From: a virus
Lineage: Duplodnaviria; Heunggongvirae; Uroviricota; Caudoviricetes
Direction: 5' to 3' (one strand)
Virus record (IMG/VR): IMGVR_UViG_3300042879_005260
Coordinates: 29,514-93,513 of that record
DNA: 64,000 bases
The position numbers and the translations under genes were made by a program. The notes beneath the pieces were generated by a model. It did no database searches. It saw only the letters and a list, made by a program, of their open reading frames with translations, and had not been told where the DNA came from. The stretch's first letter is position 1, and each line of letters opens with the position of its first letter. Below, one piece after another: positions 3,626 through 63,637 of this stretch.

Positions 3626-4222
3626 TTAATTGTGACTTATATTTGTTATATTAGGTAATGTAGTGTTTATTACACCATTGTAAATTGGAAAAGGCACTGT
3701 AGGACAAGAGTTATTAATCCAATTCCCCCAAGTACCGTCAGCACCTGCAGTCACTTGAATTAACAAACTTTGTGGTGTACAACTATTTGCAACAGTAACT
3801 TGAAAGCAAAAACTCCAAACACAAGTTGTTCCCTCATCTCCCCAATCATCGGAAGGGATGCCATTAAGTGGGCCATTAATACCAGAATCAAAAAACCAAC
3901 CTGGCCCAACCGCACCATTTGGTGTTAGATTATTAAATACCCATACCCATTGCCCACTACCTCCCCCACAATTTGCTGGTGCTGCCATTTGCTGTAGGTT
4001 CGTCCAACCTGAGCCTAAGTTAATATCGAAACCTTCTAACCAATTTGAACCAACATTTAAACCTGGCCAACCATTCATGGTGTAACACACTGTTACTACA
4101 GTACCTGGGGTATACCCACCAGCTGGAGGAGGTGGATTTAATGTAAATGTTTGGTTACCTACACATTGACCGTAAATAAAATTACTAATTAAGATGAGTA
4201 TAACTACTAAAAATCTTTTCAT
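3626..4222 (-). CDS. secreted Gly/Trp/Asn-rich protein
   Basis: signal peptide; ends ...NISHN like the 1158..1718 product (...PIGHN); paired with downstream T9SS-CTD gene. Confidence 0.4.
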   Translation of the reverse strand: MKRFLVVILILISNFIYGQCVGNQTFTLNPPPPAGGYTPGTVVTVCYTMNGWPGLNVGSNWLEGFDINLGSGWTNLQQMAAPANCGGGSGQWVWVFNNLTPNGAVGPGWFFDSGINGPLNGIPSDDWGDEGTTCVWSFCFQVTVANSCTPQSLLIQVTAGADGTWGNWINNSCPTVPFPIYNGVINTTLPNITNISHN

Positions 4223-29446: not shown

Positions 29447-29519
29447 TCTCCTGAAGCATTGCTGGCGATGCACCTGACTTGTAATCAGGATACAATCGGT
29501 TCGATTCCGGTCGGGAGAT
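29447..29519 (+). tRNA. tRNA-Thr(UGU)
   Basis: anticodon arm CCTGA-CTTGTAA-TCAGG; T-loop TTCGATT. Confidence 0.65.
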
Positions 29520-29604: not shown

Positions 29605-29679
29605 GCCTCCATGGCGGAATTGGTAGACGCGTCACTCTTAGAAAGTGAATTTTTGTAGGTTCGAATCCTACTGGGGGCA
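29605..29679 (+). tRNA. tRNA-Leu(UAG), short variable arm
   Basis: Leu-type D-arm GCGGAATTGGTAGACGC; anticodon arm TCACT-CTTAGAA-AGTGA; discriminator A; only 75 nt. Confidence 0.55.
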
Positions 29680-29690
29680 CAAAAAAATAT

Positions 29691-31603: not shown

Positions 31604-32434
31604 ATGAAAACAAAAATGAAAACAAAAATGAAATCAATCCTTTTTAGCTTAATCGTAGTAGTAACCCTTAGCTCATGTGAGCGTGTCGCACCCAATTATT
31701 ATGGAGTTCTCATGGAAAACTACGGTAAAAATGGCAAAGAAGACTACTCGAAACAACAAGGGAGAGTAAACACAACTGCTCCAGGTACAGAACTGTTTCA
31801 AGTACCAGCTTTTGAACAAAGAGCCGCATTTACTAATGAAGACGGTACCGATCGTGTATTGAAGCTCAAAGCAGCAGATAACACTGAGTTTAATGCCAAA
31901 CCACTTTATTCCTATAAGGCAATGCCTAATCGAGTAGTTGATTTGGTATTTCAAAATGCTCGACTTGGTAGTGGTGATAGCTTTATGAAATCCCTAGAAG
32001 ATAATGTGTTAGAACCTCATATTTACGATTTAATCAAAGAAGAAAGTAGAAAATACATTACTGACTCTCTTATGGCTAATGGTGGTTCATTAAAGTTTGA
32101 AGAGCGAGTACAAGCTCTAGTTAAGAAATCTTTCGAAGACAAAGGTTTAGAGTTAATTACCTTCAGTGCAAACCTTGACTTCAGTGATAAAGTAAAAGCT
32201 AAAATTGATTCTCGTAATGAAGTAAATACAAACATATCAGTGTTAGATCAACAAATTGCTGAGCAGAAAAAGAGAAACGAATTGGCTGAATTACAAGCAC
32301 AGGAAAACATAATCAAATCAAGAGGTATTACTCAAGAGTTGTTGCAACAACAAGCACTTGAAAAATGGAATGGTGTGTTACCAAGTACTTGGGCTGGGAA
32401 TGGTAGTTTACCTTTTGTAAAAGCAGTTAAGTAA
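31604..32434 (+). CDS. SPFH/band-7 domain lipoprotein
   Basis: lipoprotein signal ...TLSSC; prohibitin-like core with C-terminal coiled coil AEQKKRNELAELQAQE. Confidence 0.55.
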   Translation: MKTKMKTKMKSILFSLIVVVTLSSCERVAPNYYGVLMENYGKNGKEDYSKQQGRVNTTAPGTELFQVPAFEQRAAFTNEDGTDRVLKLKAADNTEFNAKPLYSYKAMPNRVVDLVFQNARLGSGDSFMKSLEDNVLEPHIYDLIKEESRKYITDSLMANGGSLKFEERVQALVKKSFEDKGLELITFSANLDFSDKVKAKIDSRNEVNTNISVLDQQIAEQKKRNELAELQAQENIIKSRGITQELLQQQALEKWNGVLPSTWAGNGSLPFVKAVK

Positions 32435-32443
32435 TAAAGGTTT

Positions 32444-32520
32444 AGTCAGGTGGCTGAATTGGCGACAGAGGCACTCCATTAGACAATGGGTGGATGCAGG
32501 TTCGAGTCCTGTCCTGACTA
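32444..32520 (+). tRNA. tRNA-like element with aberrant anticodon region
   Basis: acceptor AGTCAGG/CCTGACT and T-arm GCAGGTTCGAGTCCTGT are canonical, but the central region forms an extended CCATT-AGAC-AATGG hairpin instead of a 7-nt anticodon loop. Confidence 0.4.
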
Positions 32521-32540
32521 CTAAAAAATTAAAAAATAAA

Positions 32541-32570
32541 TTTGACTTTAAATAAAAAACACTTATATTT
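32541..32570 (+). promoter_or_regulatory. Bacteroidetes-type promoter (TTGACT..19..TATATTTG)
   Basis: TTGACT at 32541, TATATTTG at 32563-32570, ATG at 32596. Confidence 0.5.
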
Positions 32571-32595
32571 GTATTAAAATCAAACATTTAGACTT

Positions 32596-33510
32596 ATGAA
32601 AAAGAACTCACTCTCAACTGCCGGACTTTCGTTATCTCAAGCACAATCAATTAGTAATCTTTGTAATCAAAGAGCTAAAGATATTGAGGCGGATTTAAAA
32701 AATGTTAATAATGTTGAGAAGGTTTTAAAAATAAACAATGAAGTTTATGTTGAAACGACCGCAAAAAAACTGCCTGAAAATACCATAGAGATTTTATCAG
32801 AGAAAGCAAAATTACATGCTTGTCAGGCATTTTTAATGGAAAACATAAAAGCCAAAGATCAGTTGATAACTGAATTACAACGTAAAGTTTTTGTTTCTAA
32901 TTTAGAAGAACCTAAAATACCAGAATATAAAACATACGATGAATTACCTTTGGTGAATGAAGTTTGGGGTTGGGGCCAGCTTTCGGTTTCTGAATATAAT
33001 GAATATTTGGAGGCAGAGGCTTACGCATCCCATATTGGACAGTTTATCCATAAAGACGGTAAATTGGACACTCTTCGTAGAGAACTACCAAATATTAAAA
33101 CTTTGGAGTGGATTACGATTAAAGATGGTGAAAAAACACCTTTAAAGGTTACTATTCACCACACTCAGAGCCAATTATTGGAATTACATGAAAATTTGGC
33201 CGCAATGCACCGTAAATACGAACAACGTGTTAATTACTTTAAAGCAAAAGTAAAAAACATGGTAACCGAAGAAAATGCTCGTATTTCTAAGGAAAATGCA
33301 TTTAAGTTGGCGGAAGTAATAAAAGAAAACGAAATTCTTGAAAAAGAATTCACCAACCTGTATAAAAATTACCAATCTGAAAACCTAAAATTGAAACAAG
33401 ATTTTGAGGTGAGTCGTCAAGAACAAATTAAAGAAGTTTCTTCTTTAAGAATTCAGGTGGACCCAAGATTTCAAGAGGTTGTTAATTTTTTTTTAAGTAA
33501 AATGGCATAA
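32596..33510 (+). CDS. coiled-coil hypothetical protein
   Basis: ORF track 304 aa. Confidence 0.4.
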   Translation: MKKNSLSTAGLSLSQAQSISNLCNQRAKDIEADLKNVNNVEKVLKINNEVYVETTAKKLPENTIEILSEKAKLHACQAFLMENIKAKDQLITELQRKVFVSNLEEPKIPEYKTYDELPLVNEVWGWGQLSVSEYNEYLEAEAYASHIGQFIHKDGKLDTLRRELPNIKTLEWITIKDGEKTPLKVTIHHTQSQLLELHENLAAMHRKYEQRVNYFKAKVKNMVTEENARISKENAFKLAEVIKENEILEKEFTNLYKNYQSENLKLKQDFEVSRQEQIKEVSSLRIQVDPRFQEVVNFFLSKMA

Positions 33511-33849
33511 TGAAGGTGGTTCAAAAGTAAGCATAAGCCGATATTTTGAACTTTTGTATTTGGTGGTTTGGTTCTTAATGTAATGAATATTACTCAATAA
33601 TTAATTTACATTTTTTTATCATCTAGGTGATAAAAATACCAAACCGCTTCCTTACAAACTTTAAAAACTGAGATAGAACTCACGGTTAGACAGGTTATCC
33701 TATAGTGGAAGAATTGGCTAACAAATTGAGACTTGGTTTTTGGCTTTGTCTTTGATGTGAGGAAGGTCTTTGATTTAGTTTTTGATTTAGACGTTATCTA
33801 CACACCAAATCACTAAATAACTTCATAAAACATTAGTTCTTTAAATTTT

Positions 33850-34121
33850 GCACCTGTAGCTCAGTTGGATTAGAGCAACTGCCTCAAATCGGGGGTGTTA
33901 TGTCAGAAATGACATAATAGAATTCATCAAATTCGGGGAATCCTGTAAAATGGTAATCCCGAGCGAAGCCTGAAAAGGAACGTGTAGAGACTTGACGGTG
34001 AACACCTAAGTTAGAATCTAATAAGGTGATGGGAAAGTCCAGACCACAAACGTAAATGGTAGTGAAAACTATAGTGGTATGTCTAAGCAGTAGGTCCCAG
34101 GTTCGAATCCTGGCAGGTGTA
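33850..34121 (+). tRNA. tRNA-Arg(UCU) interrupted by a group I intron
   Basis: 5' exon GCACCTGTAGCTCAGTTGGATTAGAGCAACTGCCT (33850-33884); 3' exon TCTAAGCAGTAGGTCCCAGGTTCGAATCCTGGCAGGTGTA (34082-34121). Spliced product closely matches bacterial tRNA-Arg(UCU). Exon ends in U, intron ends in G. Confidence 0.6.
33885..34081 (+). ncRNA. group I intron (trnL-intron-like core), ~197 nt
   Basis: GGTAATCCCGAGCGAAGCC resembles the trnL intron GGGCAATCCTGAGCCAA element; GTGTAGAGACTTGACGG resembles the catalytic-core GCAGAGACTCAATGG; P7 pairing GACUU/AAGUC present. Confidence 0.55.
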
Positions 34122-34341
34122 CAATGAGTAAGAGATACTCAGCAGTCTTTGGTTCAAGACTCATTTAACAATGAACCCGTTCAAACTGGACAGCGGAATG
34201 CCAGTTCTTAGGGTCAAAGGCGCCAATCACAGCTCCTCCTTCGTAGTGTGACTTTTTTAATAGGGGATGCCCTGTAGGTTTCATCAATAGGAAAAAAACC
34301 GGAATGACTACTCACCTGGAATCTCAAGGTGGGGAAATTTA

Positions 34342-34433
34342 GTCGGGTGGCGGAATTGGTAGACGCTGGCTTGAGAAGAATGTAGAGAGAGCCTTAAAGG
34401 ACATTCAATACAGGTTCGAATCCTGTCCTGACA
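34342..34433 (+). tRNA. tRNA-like element (Leu-type D-arm), anticodon arm unresolved
   Basis: GGCGGAATTGGTAGACGC D-arm and AGGTTCGAATCCT T-arm; 3' half nearly identical to the 32444 element; middle forms a GAATGT...ACATTC hairpin with a 17-nt loop. Confidence 0.35.
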
Positions 34434-34455
34434 ACTAAAAAAAATACAAAAATAC

Positions 34456-34486
34456 TTGATAGATTAAAAAATATTTAGTATCTTTG
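34456..34486 (+). promoter_or_regulatory. Bacteroidetes-type promoter P1 in RNA island
   Basis: TTGATA..20 nt..TATCTTTG (34479-34486). Confidence 0.5.
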
Positions 34487-34597
34487 TTATGTTCTTTGGA
34501 AAGGAGGTCTGGTGTGAACCTGAGATATTTGAGATTCCCGATAAGGGAACGATTTTAAGCGACTCAGTAGCACATTCCAAACAACAAAAAAAATATT

Positions 34598-34628
34598 ACA
34601 AAAGTACTTGACAAATTAAAAAATGTTT
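34598..34628 (+). promoter_or_regulatory. Bacteroidetes-type promoter P2 (near-duplicate of P1)
   Basis: TTGACA..20 nt..TATCTTTG (34621-34628); ~50-bp block nearly identical to P1. Confidence 0.5.
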
Positions 34629-34634
34629 AGTATC

Positions 34635-35810
34635 TTTGTAAGACAAAATCGGGAAACCGAATCGTTCTTTGAAAAAATAGATTATCCGTTCAGGTGAAAG
34701 TAAGTTCTTCGGAACTATGATAACTTGATAAAGATATTGGGCCGTGTATAGTCCTTAAATAAACTACGAAAGTAGGATAAAGTGAAATCATCTGTGTTAG
34801 TGGTTTTGCGTCTTGGGAAACCGAGGTCGAGTACACAAGTGGGATATCATCTAACCTTTAGTACTGAGGGCAACGCTTTAGGGAAAATGGTTAGATGACT
34901 AAGCAATGTGGATTGTTTAGTTGAGGTGGGAACACCGATAAGAATAACCCATAGGAATCTTACAAAAAATGTGATTATCCAGTTACATTATTGTGGGTTC
35001 CAATACAAGAGAGGACTTAAAACCGAAAGGTAAGATGGAGAACGAGTGGTGTCGCTACCATCCCTATCAAAGATTTACCAAAATCTTGATATGAAGTAAT
35101 CTTAAAATATGGAAATGGGGACATTTCACTGAGTAGTTTGGTATTCTTTTCTTCAAAAGAGAACGGAGCCTACGACGGACCACTACTTGGACACATCCAC
35201 AACACAAAAACTTTATTATGAAAATTAAAGTCCATTTAATAAATAATTCTAAAGCAAAAGTGTTCGTCAGGTGTTGATGAAAGGTGATTACATAGTCATG
35301 AGTTGTTCATGGCACACTGAGACCGCAAGTTGATGTGTATTCTTGTGAAAAACCTCTAGTCCCGCAAGGATCAACTGGGGAGGCATCCTCGGAGAGAGTT
35401 GAGTAGAAAGAGAGTAGTTGGCACCTCTAGGAGTTGTATACCTAAAAAACCATCACTGAGAAATACTTCTCAAAAGGAAGTGGAAATAAAGGGAAACAAT
35501 AATCCTTTTAAAGGTTCTCACAAAAAACGTGTATTCTCAGCGTAAGTTTTAAAAAATATTTTAAAAGTAAAAAATCAAAACCACTGGTTAAACCCACTGG
35601 GGATTAGGCTCTAATGATGTCCACCCTTTGGTAAGTACTCACAATAGGCCGGCTTCTTTAATGGCTGATACGTGTATAAGTCCGAGCATAAAACACGAAC
35701 TCTACTTACTTTGTGAAATTACTGCCAATTGCAGACTACTATGTGGAATAAATAGATGACCTTCTGAACATAAAGATAAGTGCTCTTGGTTTGATTTTGT
35801 TATAATATAA
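34635..35810 (+). ncRNA. candidate large structured non-coding RNA (~1.2 kb, unknown family)
   Basis: downstream of promoter P2; no ORF above 60 aa on either strand; locally GC-richer than genome; many local hairpins; T-arm-like GGTTCGATTCC near 35855. Confidence 0.3.
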
Positions 35811-35959: not shown

Positions 35960-36030
35960 GCGAGTATAGCATAAAATTAATGCGCCGGTTTTCCAAACCG
36001 AAGAAGGTGGAGAGTTACCATCTACTCGCT
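35960..36030 (+). tRNA. tRNA-Gly(UCC) candidate with atypical D/T loops
   Basis: acceptor GCGAGTA/TACTCGC; anticodon arm CCGGT-TTTCCAA-ACCGA; T-stem GGTGG/CCATC with non-canonical loop AGAGTTA; D-loop lacks GG. Confidence 0.4.
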
Positions 36031-63564: not shown

Positions 63565-63637
63565 CGGTCCACACGGGAGTTGAACCCGTTCCATACTCCG
63601 TGACAGGGAGATATCTTAACCGTTTGACCTGTGGACC
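63565..63637 (-). tRNA. tRNA-Asp(GUC)
   Basis: reverse complement: acceptor GGTCCAC/GTGGACC, anticodon loop CTGTCAC, T-arm ACGGGTTCAACTCCCGT. Confidence 0.55.

Follow-up and report, generated by a model that had tools for sequence, protein, structure and literature searches.

The window analysed here is a 64,000-nucleotide (nt) stretch of an uncultured Caudoviricetes virus (IMG/VR record IMGVR_UViG_3300042879_005260, positions 29,514 to 93,513), and it contains two small tRNA-like elements, here named element 1 and element 2 (77 and 94 nt, respectively; Table 1). The region around both elements looks like an RNA-rich island of an apparently large phage genome, and 21 tRNAs were detected across the window with ARAGORN. 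Element 1 starts 9 nt past the stop codon of the open reading frame (ORF) 31604-32434, which encodes an SPFH-domain protein; a predicted Bacteroidota-type promoter directly 3' of the element precedes ORF 32596-33510, so that element 1 would lie at the 3' end of the preceding transcription unit. Element 2 abuts a 215-nt non-coding RNA candidate, and is followed by a promoter, a second promoter and a GOLLD RNA, in that order. No intrinsic terminators were predicted around the elements.

Table 1. Positions of the two tRNA-like elements, their parts and neighbouring features in the window (position 1 is its first nucleotide)
Feature	Position	Strand	Description
Element 1, whole	32444-32520, plus conserved C at 32521	+	tRNA-Leu-type chassis, 27-nt insert region
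Element 1, acceptor 5' strand	32444-32450	+	AGUCAGG; 7/7 pairs with 32513-32519; equals the family consensus
Element 1, D arm	32453-32468	+	GCUGAAUUGGCGACAG(A); 3-base-pair stem CUG/CAG; A14, A15, G18 and G19 retained
Element 1, insert	32469-32495	+	CAC-U-CCAUU AGAC AAUGG-GUG hairpin (minimum free energy fold), then GAU (U48)
Element 1, T arm	32496-32512	+	GCAGG UUCGAGU CCUGU; read from the sequence
Element 1, acceptor 3' strand, discriminator A73 and C74	32513-32521	+	CCUGACU; CCA not encoded
Element 2, whole	34341-34434, plus C at 34435	+	Same chassis as element 1, 43-nt insert
Element 2, 5' frame	34341-34366	+	Acceptor AGUCGGG, U8 G9, D arm GCGGAAUUGGUAGACGC; read from the sequence
Element 2, insert	34367-34409	+	UGGCUUGAGAAGAAUGUAGAGAGAGCCUUAAAGGACAUUCAAU; helices GGCUU/GAGCC and GAAUGU/ACAUUC (minimum free energy fold)
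Element 2, T arm, acceptor 3' strand, A73 and C74	34410-34435	+	ACAGG UUCGAAU CCUGU, then CCUGACA; read from the sequence
Putative Bacteroidota-type promoter, directly 3' of element 1	32542-32571	+	TTG, 19 nt, TATATTTG; predicted by motif scan only
Putative Bacteroidota-type promoter, directly 3' of element 2	34456-34486	+	TTG ... TATCTTTG; predicted by motif scan only
Non-coding RNA candidate, 215 nt	34122-34340	+	Kept in six phage contigs; 88% identity to contig L011
tRNA split by a group I intron	33852-34122	+	Intron 33875-34062, Rfam 61.3 bits
tRNA-Leu(UAG)	29605-29680	+	76 nt, short variable loop
GOLLD RNA	Core 35129-35543, whole about 34640-35543		Rfam 306 bits

U8, A14, G18G19 and the T54-A58 loop are present in both elements, as are the D and T arms. 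Element 2 and the tRNA-Leu(UAG) of the same window have identical D arms (GCGGAAUUGGUAGACGC); the register of the D stem in element 1 is our own reading, and the Rfam alignment differs slightly from it. As claimed in the original prediction, which was made from the sequence alone, the 3' halves of the two elements are nearly identical: the window contains exactly two copies of the 22-mer CAGGTTCGA[G/A]TCCTGTCCTGAC, for an expectation of 0 from 100 shuffles, and a third match with three mismatches corresponds to a tRNA-Gln. The coordinates first given for element 1 were right, and element 2 was found to start one base earlier than predicted, at 34341. In element 1 the insert stands in for the anticodon and variable arms, and the CCATT-AGAC-AATGG hairpin described previously is present in the minimum free energy fold, where it is extended to eight pairs with one bulge. 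In element 2 the GAATGT...ACATTC hairpin with a 17-nt loop can form, but RNAfold favours the alternative GGCUU/GAGCC helix; in our own reading, both helices could be compatible as a pseudoknot. It is the tRNA frame, together with its recurrence elsewhere, that lies far beyond chance.

Neither element has a standard 7-nt anticodon loop, and on this point the first description was borne out by the folds, by the Rfam alignments and by a poor ARAGORN fit. With the Rfam tRNA model (RF00005, gathering threshold 29), elements 1 and 2 scored 36.9 and 30.3 bits, respectively, but these scores were reached only by skipping the middle of the sequence, which in element 2 meant a 38-nt block (17 model positions). 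ARAGORN left element 2 uncalled and reported element 1 as 'tRNA-Stop (tta)', formally a standard tRNA with a defined anticodon; however, this call fails inspection, since the anticodon stem of the fold (CACUC/CAAUG) forms three of five pairs and position 33 is A, not U. A 5-base pair (bp) anticodon stem with a 7-nt loop, U33 and a purine at position 37 is found in neither element. Read with the standard code, 73% of the window is covered by long ORFs, and 47 of the 58 ORFs of at least 150 codons stop at TAA, so an ochre suppressor is not credible; when TAA was dropped as a stop, the coverage rose to 160% of the window, made of overlapping nonsense ORFs. The ochre suppressor was thus rejected on stem pairing, A33 and TAA usage.

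Other suggestions made for the two elements were an intron-containing and a permuted tRNA. The first does not hold, since the inserts measure 26-43 nt, an exon-like anticodon stem-loop is not conserved and no intron model matched at either element at E<=1, the models having detected the intron of the neighbouring tRNA at 33852-34122. The second does not hold either, since the two tRNA halves stand in normal order. A transfer-messenger RNA (tmRNA) was also rejected: the third acceptor pair is U3:A70 and not G3:U70, the elements are only 77 and 94 nt long, and neither ARAGORN nor Rfam gave a tmRNA call.

The frame shared by both elements resembles the top half of a tRNA-Leu, and the chassis, as read from the sequences, consists of a 7-bp acceptor stem, a D arm with a 3-bp stem, a T arm, the A15-U48 pair, A73 and C74. 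Copies gathered by exact matches to the frame have in common the AGUCAGG acceptor strand, the GCGGAAUUGGUAGACGC D arm, the T arm, U48, A73 and C74; among 373 unique copies, A73 was present in 90%, C74 in 98%, C75 in 5% and U48 in 86%. When 76 distinct frames from exact frame matches were aligned, 98.4% of the cells were paired, and double (compensatory) changes were found in all three D-stem pairs and four of the five T-stem pairs, values which none of 500 shuffles reached. The acceptor stem seemed invariant in this sample because of the way it was gathered. In a second sample, anchored on an insert motif, the acceptor stem covaries, with the variants AGUCAGG/CCUGACU, AGUGAGG/CCUCACU (six contigs), AGUAGAG/CUCUAUU and UUUAGGG/CCCUGAA. 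The two closest relatives of the window phage contain, where element 1 sits, a diverged member with the acceptor GGCCAGG/UCUGGUC and a D-loop hairpin. Part of the apparent invariance in sequence is therefore an effect of ascertainment, and it is the pairing of the chassis on which selection acts.

In the same phages, the acceptor stems of the genuine tRNA-Leu genes are quite unlike that of the family, and their anticodon and variable arms are normal. The leucine identity set is kept in the family (A73, A15-U48, G18G19, U8:A14 and the D/T-loop pairs), and it is complete in elements 1 and 2. These positions are the determinants of the E. coli leucyl-tRNA synthetase (LeuRS), for which the anticodon and the long variable arm are dispensable, and truncated tRNA-Leu without anticodon and variable arms is still charged, as reviewed in PMC9976931. 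Leucylation of the elements is possible, because the identity set is intact. What has been kept is the portion of tRNA-Leu required by LeuRS, RNase P, the enzymes of 3' processing and the CCA-adding enzyme, and what varies is the portion that they can do without. The descriptions 'tRNA-derived' and 'mimic RNAs' proved apt for elements that share a D arm with a tRNA-Leu and cannot decode.

Some members deviate from this plan at other sites. A hairpin is inserted in the D loop of members from contigs L252/L253 (about 3800-3990), L064, L146, L347 and L354, and the D loop appears to be a second permissive site on the chassis. In members from contigs L148 (1912, + strand), L150 (5114, + strand), L153, L154, L158 and L338, the 3' acceptor strand is split by a piece of 50-90 nt; it contains a GC-rich hairpin with a (U)AGAAAU loop, and could represent a small mobile insert for which the frame is the target.

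That elements 1 and 2 are part of a very large phage family, in which the frame is constant and the inserts vary, had not been foreseen. The 3' 22-mer was found in at least 120 uncultured viral contigs of IMG/VR, many of them with 2-8 matches, and the 26-mer AGTCAGGTGGCGGAATTGGTAGACGC of the 5' half was likewise found in at least 120. The 373 unique copies were collected from about 250 loci. The whole element measures 48-333 nt (median near 100), a spread that speaks against tRNAs; the copies sit within or beside phage tRNA arrays, and 67 of 196 loci carry 2-6 copies. A covariance model of the family (R1) gave element 2 the top score of the window (55.1 bits) and element 1 a score of 52.0, with 38.9 for the best real tRNA, and both elements contain a non-tRNA insert between position 26 and U48. 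Other members were missed by ARAGORN or received scattered calls (Pro-agg, Glu-ctc, Ser-aga, Tyr-ata and "???"), and Rfam produced weak tRNA matches of 90-150 nt.

Among 185,579 species genomes the 22-mer was found at 27 places, all of them in contigs of metagenome-assembled genomes (MAGs), mostly binned as Bacteroidota (Chitinophagia, Flavobacterium, Saprospirales and Sediminibacterium). All but about two of these matches are the same kind of element, indicating that the 22-mer is not a host tRNA gene. Mimicry of a host tRNA gene was rejected, as the 22-mer is present in no isolate among those genomes and the MAG copies belong to the family itself. The titles of the MAGs name lakes, for example Lake Mendota, Lake Loclat and the Experimental Lakes Area. 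Neither half of the frame was found intact in GenBank phages (50,697 records). Judging from the MAG bins and the promoter motifs, the host clade is probably freshwater Bacteroidota, infected by uncultured phages. The family is apparently undescribed: a published description was not found in an incomplete literature search, which proves no novelty, and a survey of structured RNAs in IMG/VR mentions only five tRNA-overlapping candidates, unrelated to this family (PMC10690425).

The inserts replace the anticodon and variable arms between the constant 5' and 3' parts. A set of 255 inserts of 16-146 nt (median 52) formed 208 sequence clusters, the largest with five members; no two copies within one locus have the same insert, and such pairs are as dissimilar as random pairs. 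The inserts are purine-rich and fold better than dinucleotide shuffles (mean z -0.73, p about 1e-21), and compensatory changes were found in several small clusters, for example in a helix that appears as GUGU/ACAC, GCGU/ACGC or ACGU/ACGU, and in another as GUUGAA/UUCAAC or GAGCAA/UUGCUC. One insert type, found by a 21-nt motif, occurs in 47 viral contigs. Outside the motif its mean identity is 85%, compared with 88% for the frame, and for the most diverged frame of this subfamily the insert retains 79% identity with 56% for the frame; at least this insert type is under purifying selection. As to features shared by the inserts, only a weak k-mer enrichment was detected (AGUCC, GGUG/CCAC), T-loop-like hairpins were not clearly enriched (7 observed, 3.8 expected), and no conserved anticodon stem-loop was found across the family.

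The site of element 2 could be compared with that of a related phage, contig L011. Identity is 88% in the flanking RNA and 92% in the 3' frame, but the D loop is different and the insert is unrelated (33%), indicating a turnover of inserts by replacement, for which recombination at the constant halves is the probable route.

Signals of tRNA type were found next to the copies. The base at position -1 is U in 82% and that at -2 is A in 74%, and the real tRNAs of the window share 'aaat' leaders and 'N73-C-(a/t)aa' trailers with the family copies. A TAnnTTTG box was located 3-16 nt upstream in 23 of 305 copies. Beside ORF 32596-33510 no conserved spot for the family was detected, since only 4-5 of 80 related loci have a strong member, placed elsewhere than element 1.

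The 215-nt RNA candidate next to element 2 has a tRNA or a family member on both sides in every contig, shows compensatory changes in 17 of 44 predicted pairs and has no Rfam match. In contigs L087 and L063 a real tRNA follows it in the place of the element, indicating that tRNA and element are interchangeable at this site.

The explanation that we favour, with moderate confidence, is that the elements are non-decoding small RNAs in which a chassis derived from tRNA-Leu carries a different insert in each copy, the insert being the working part. Such an RNA would be transcribed from its own promoter, or as the end of a longer unit. RNase P would then generate the 5' end by cleavage after the conserved U at -1, and the 3' end would be trimmed and completed to CCA by the host enzyme. 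The L-shaped top half would fold and provide exact ends and stability, and may bring the RNA into contact with proteins that bind tRNA (LeuRS and EF-Tu, for example), with the insert projecting at the position of the anticodon arm and carrying the specific activity. Since elements 1 and 2 follow other RNAs, the RNase P cut at their 5' end would at the same time set the 3' end of the RNA in front of them, an mRNA for element 1 and the 215-nt RNA for element 2. What the analysis shows is membership in the family, the tRNA-like fold, the lack of decoding, the diversity of the inserts and the constraint on one insert subfamily; processing, addition of CCA, charging and a role for the insert are inferred.

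Several observations weigh against this explanation. The near-invariant frame is in part an artefact of exact matching, as described above, and element 2 forms six of seven acceptor pairs, with an A1.A72 mismatch and a G5.U68 wobble. The hairpins of the two elements are near chance level when taken alone (p about 0.09 for element 1 and 0.06 for element 2, by shuffling). No relatives of either insert were found in the insert sample, nor by exact matches in IMG/VR or the JGI metagenomes, so that constraint on these two inserts is an extrapolation from the rest of the family. Formal tests of covariation were precluded by small size in most insert clusters, and the insert of the 47-contig subfamily is too invariant for formal covariation to show. 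No Rfam family was detected in the inserts at gathering score or E<=0.5 (8-20 loci). The antisense targets predicted in the window are at chance level, since 283 and 184 of 300 shuffles did equally well for the two elements. Nor was a linked protein found, no ORF family being present in more than 21 of 245 loci (9%). The LeuRS identity rules derive from E. coli and Aquifex and not from Bacteroidota, and the proposals on processing, charging and function are drawn from sequence.

An alternative, which we regard as unlikely but which fits the position of both elements, is that they are pure processing punctuation: the top half would be recognised by RNase P and RNase Z so that neighbouring RNAs are cut to size, and the insert would be a tolerated filler. 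The suggestion that the elements are processing signals is plausible for both copies, which lie at the end of another transcript, one behind a stop codon and the other abutting the 215-nt RNA, have promoters after them, and share leaders and trailers of tRNA type. The real tRNAs that follow the 215-nt RNA in L087 and L063 also fit this alternative, for which the t-elements, tRNA-like sequences that are cut, CCA-tailed and left uncharged, offer a precedent (PMC11658184). However, a filler would not be expected to exceed the arms it replaces, as the inserts often do (median 52 nt, up to 146), to fold better than chance with compensatory changes or, as in one subfamily, to be conserved as much as the frame. 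Some copies are preceded, at a few nt, by a promoter of their own, and up to about nine copies are found among real tRNAs that could already punctuate. The full leucine identity set is also retained, although neither RNase P nor RNase Z needs it.

In a second alternative, to which we give a lower probability still, the chassis itself is the working part: a decoy or sponge for host enzymes or for defence nucleases that act on the acceptor end, or a non-ribosomal carrier of leucine. The insert would then merely keep the RNA off the ribosome. The conservation of the acceptor end along with the leucine determinants, the several copies per genome, which could supply dosage, and the lack of a linked phage protein, consistent with a host partner, are all in agreement with it. 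On the other hand, inserts are never shared within a genome, which is unexpected for simple amplification of dosage, and purifying selection acts on at least one insert type across phages with diverged chassis. We know of no acceptor-targeting defence system here.

It is very unlikely that the elements act at the DNA level, where the constant halves would be sites of recombination or attachment through which phages exchange cassettes, and the RNA fold would be a relic. The comparison with L011, in which the D loop and insert were replaced at the same site of two related phages, and the foreign pieces in the 3' acceptor strand of some copies are in its favour; recombination at the frame is possibly a by-product. 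The compensatory changes in the acceptor, D and T stems show selection on RNA pairing and not on DNA sequence, which contradicts a primary function of this kind, and the positions of tertiary interactions (U8, A14, A15-U48, G18G19 and the T loop) are retained. The idea of att-like sites is not supported either, since both tRNA halves are present, there are several copies per genome, and neither an integrase or recombinase nor any protein family was found linked to the loci.

Decaying tRNA-Leu pseudogenes would account for the ancestry, the weak Rfam scores and the A1.A72 mismatch, but are highly improbable, because decay would affect all parts alike, and here hundreds of copies retain the frame, with covariation, and differ only in the middle, where the inserts often exceed the original arms in size. 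Functional decoding, by an ochre suppressor or by tRNAs in which the anticodon loop is expanded or a small intron is present, has in its favour the ARAGORN call for element 1 and can be practically discarded, in view of the three paired positions and A33 of that call, the TAA usage, the arbitrary anticodons called in other members, and the lack of a conserved anticodon stem-loop and of intron matches.

The best-supported interpretation of the non-decoding RNAs with variable inserts is, by analogy, a natural counterpart of the laboratory tRNA scaffold. In these designs (Ponchon & Dardel 2007, cited in PMC4402540), an RNA of interest takes the place of the tRNA anticodon arm, and the scaffold retains the acceptor, D and T arms so that the chimera is processed and stabilised by the cell, the same architecture as in the elements. 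The scaffold as described there is man-made and uses a tRNA-Lys or tRNA-Met chassis in E. coli, whereas the elements are natural and phage-encoded, with a tRNA-Leu chassis and hundreds of inserts.

Among viruses, the nearest precedent is the TMER family of the herpesvirus MHV68, in which a vtRNA (tRNA-like element) is joined to pre-miRNA hairpins (PMC4838037). Like the elements, these are viral, non-decoding tRNA-like handles in several copies with variable hairpins, and their processing is by a tRNA enzyme (tRNase Z), but they belong to a eukaryotic virus, are transcribed by Pol III, place the hairpins downstream of the tRNA-like part and carry microRNAs as cargo. Plant mitochondrial t-elements and the human mascRNA are non-decoding tRNA-like RNAs, which RNase P and RNase Z cleave and to which CCA is added (PMC11658184). 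Their cleavage sets the ends of neighbouring RNAs, as would be the case for elements 1 and 2; they differ in being single or in few copies, with no family of variable inserts, in a diverged D stem and in reportedly not being aminoacylated, in contrast to the D arm and leucine identity set retained in the elements. The tRNA-like structures of plant RNA viruses, mentioned in PMC11658184 and PMC7749636, are aminoacylatable mimics of the tRNA top half to which host tRNA enzymes respond. Those structures are 3' ends of RNA genomes with a pseudoknotted acceptor, accepting valine, histidine or tyrosine, and the elements are free-standing genes of DNA phages with a true acceptor stem.

In tmRNA, which also has pseudoknots, a tRNA-like acceptor/T domain is combined with a large structured insertion at the place of the anticodon arm. 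Its alanine identity (G3:U70), tag reading frame, length of 260-400 nt and reduced D arm are all absent from the elements. The 'species 1 and 2' of phage T4 (rnaC and rnaD) are small stable RNAs encoded in the tRNA cluster and matured with the tRNAs, and they resemble the elements in their place among phage tRNA genes; they are not known to form a multi-copy family with a constant chassis.

A bolder version of the favoured explanation, which we put forward only tentatively and consider rather doubtful as a whole, is a modular RNA display of natural origin in phages of freshwater Bacteroidota, with one chassis and hundreds of structured heads, several per genome, that can be exchanged by recombination at the constant halves. 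The chassis would be matured, and perhaps leucylated, by host enzymes, and the heads would have effector roles, for instance as aptamers, as protein sponges or as modules for cargo or docking in the RNA cages of GOLLD type, which are encoded in these tRNA islands too. If the favoured explanation is right, nature would have preceded the laboratory 'tRNA scaffold' and would use the design at large scale in phages. A large class of phage small RNAs would now be unannotated or mislabelled as odd tRNAs, suppressors or pseudogenes, and its inserts would amount to a ready-made collection of structured RNAs from nature that tolerate being joined to a common chassis. A testable question would also arise, namely the role of large-phage tRNA islands beyond codon supply, including the recurrent presence in them of GOLLD and of other RNAs that lack an explanation. 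A caution also follows for annotation, as phage 'tRNA-Stop' calls can be artefacts of this family and not evidence for stop-codon recoding.

Other features of the window complete the picture of the island. The GOLLD RNA has its own Bacteroidota-type promoter at 34608-34638, according to the motif scan, and in contigs L048 and L033 a family element is likewise located upstream of GOLLD. Promoter-like sites of this type (TTG, about 19 nt, TAnnTTTG) recur ahead of the genes of the window. The short stretch 34487-34590 (+ strand), just 5' of GOLLD, is flanked by two near-identical promoters and may be a separate small transcript.

The tRNA split by a group I intron at 33852-34122 received no ARAGORN call; in our own reading its exons would form a tRNA-Arg(UCU), with position 33 just before the intron and position 34 just after it. 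The tRNA-Leu(UAG) was called type-I-like because of its short variable loop and length of 76 nt, and similar tRNA-Leu genes are present in contigs L059 and L073. Two further tRNA matches were given by Rfam only, with no ARAGORN call, at 35960-36030 (+ strand, 45.4 bits) and 63565-63637 (- strand, 51.8 bits). One HNH endonuclease ORF is located among the tRNAs of the window, a PHROG match corresponds to an SbcC-like protein, and the gene neighbours include DnaJ, HNH and SPFH proteins as well as proteins of no assigned function. The non-coding stretches 33644-33791 and 35582-35788 (+ strand) have no annotation and no Rfam match; they are conserved with other viral contigs, namely L045 (85-93%) and L011/L041 (78%).

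Islands of the same type were observed in other contigs. Positions 1-3800 of L011 (- strand) form a dense RNA-only island of about 3.8 kb with no convincing ORF, in which about nine family members are interleaved with six tRNAs. Phage tmRNA genes were found in such islands in contigs L063 (4977-5349), L048 (2717-3112) and L010 (7832-8193), the last of which additionally contains a group I intron. In L018 an element shares its island with a freshwater-1 RNA (RF02979) at 4124-4186, which scored 70.1 bits, just below the gathering score of 72.

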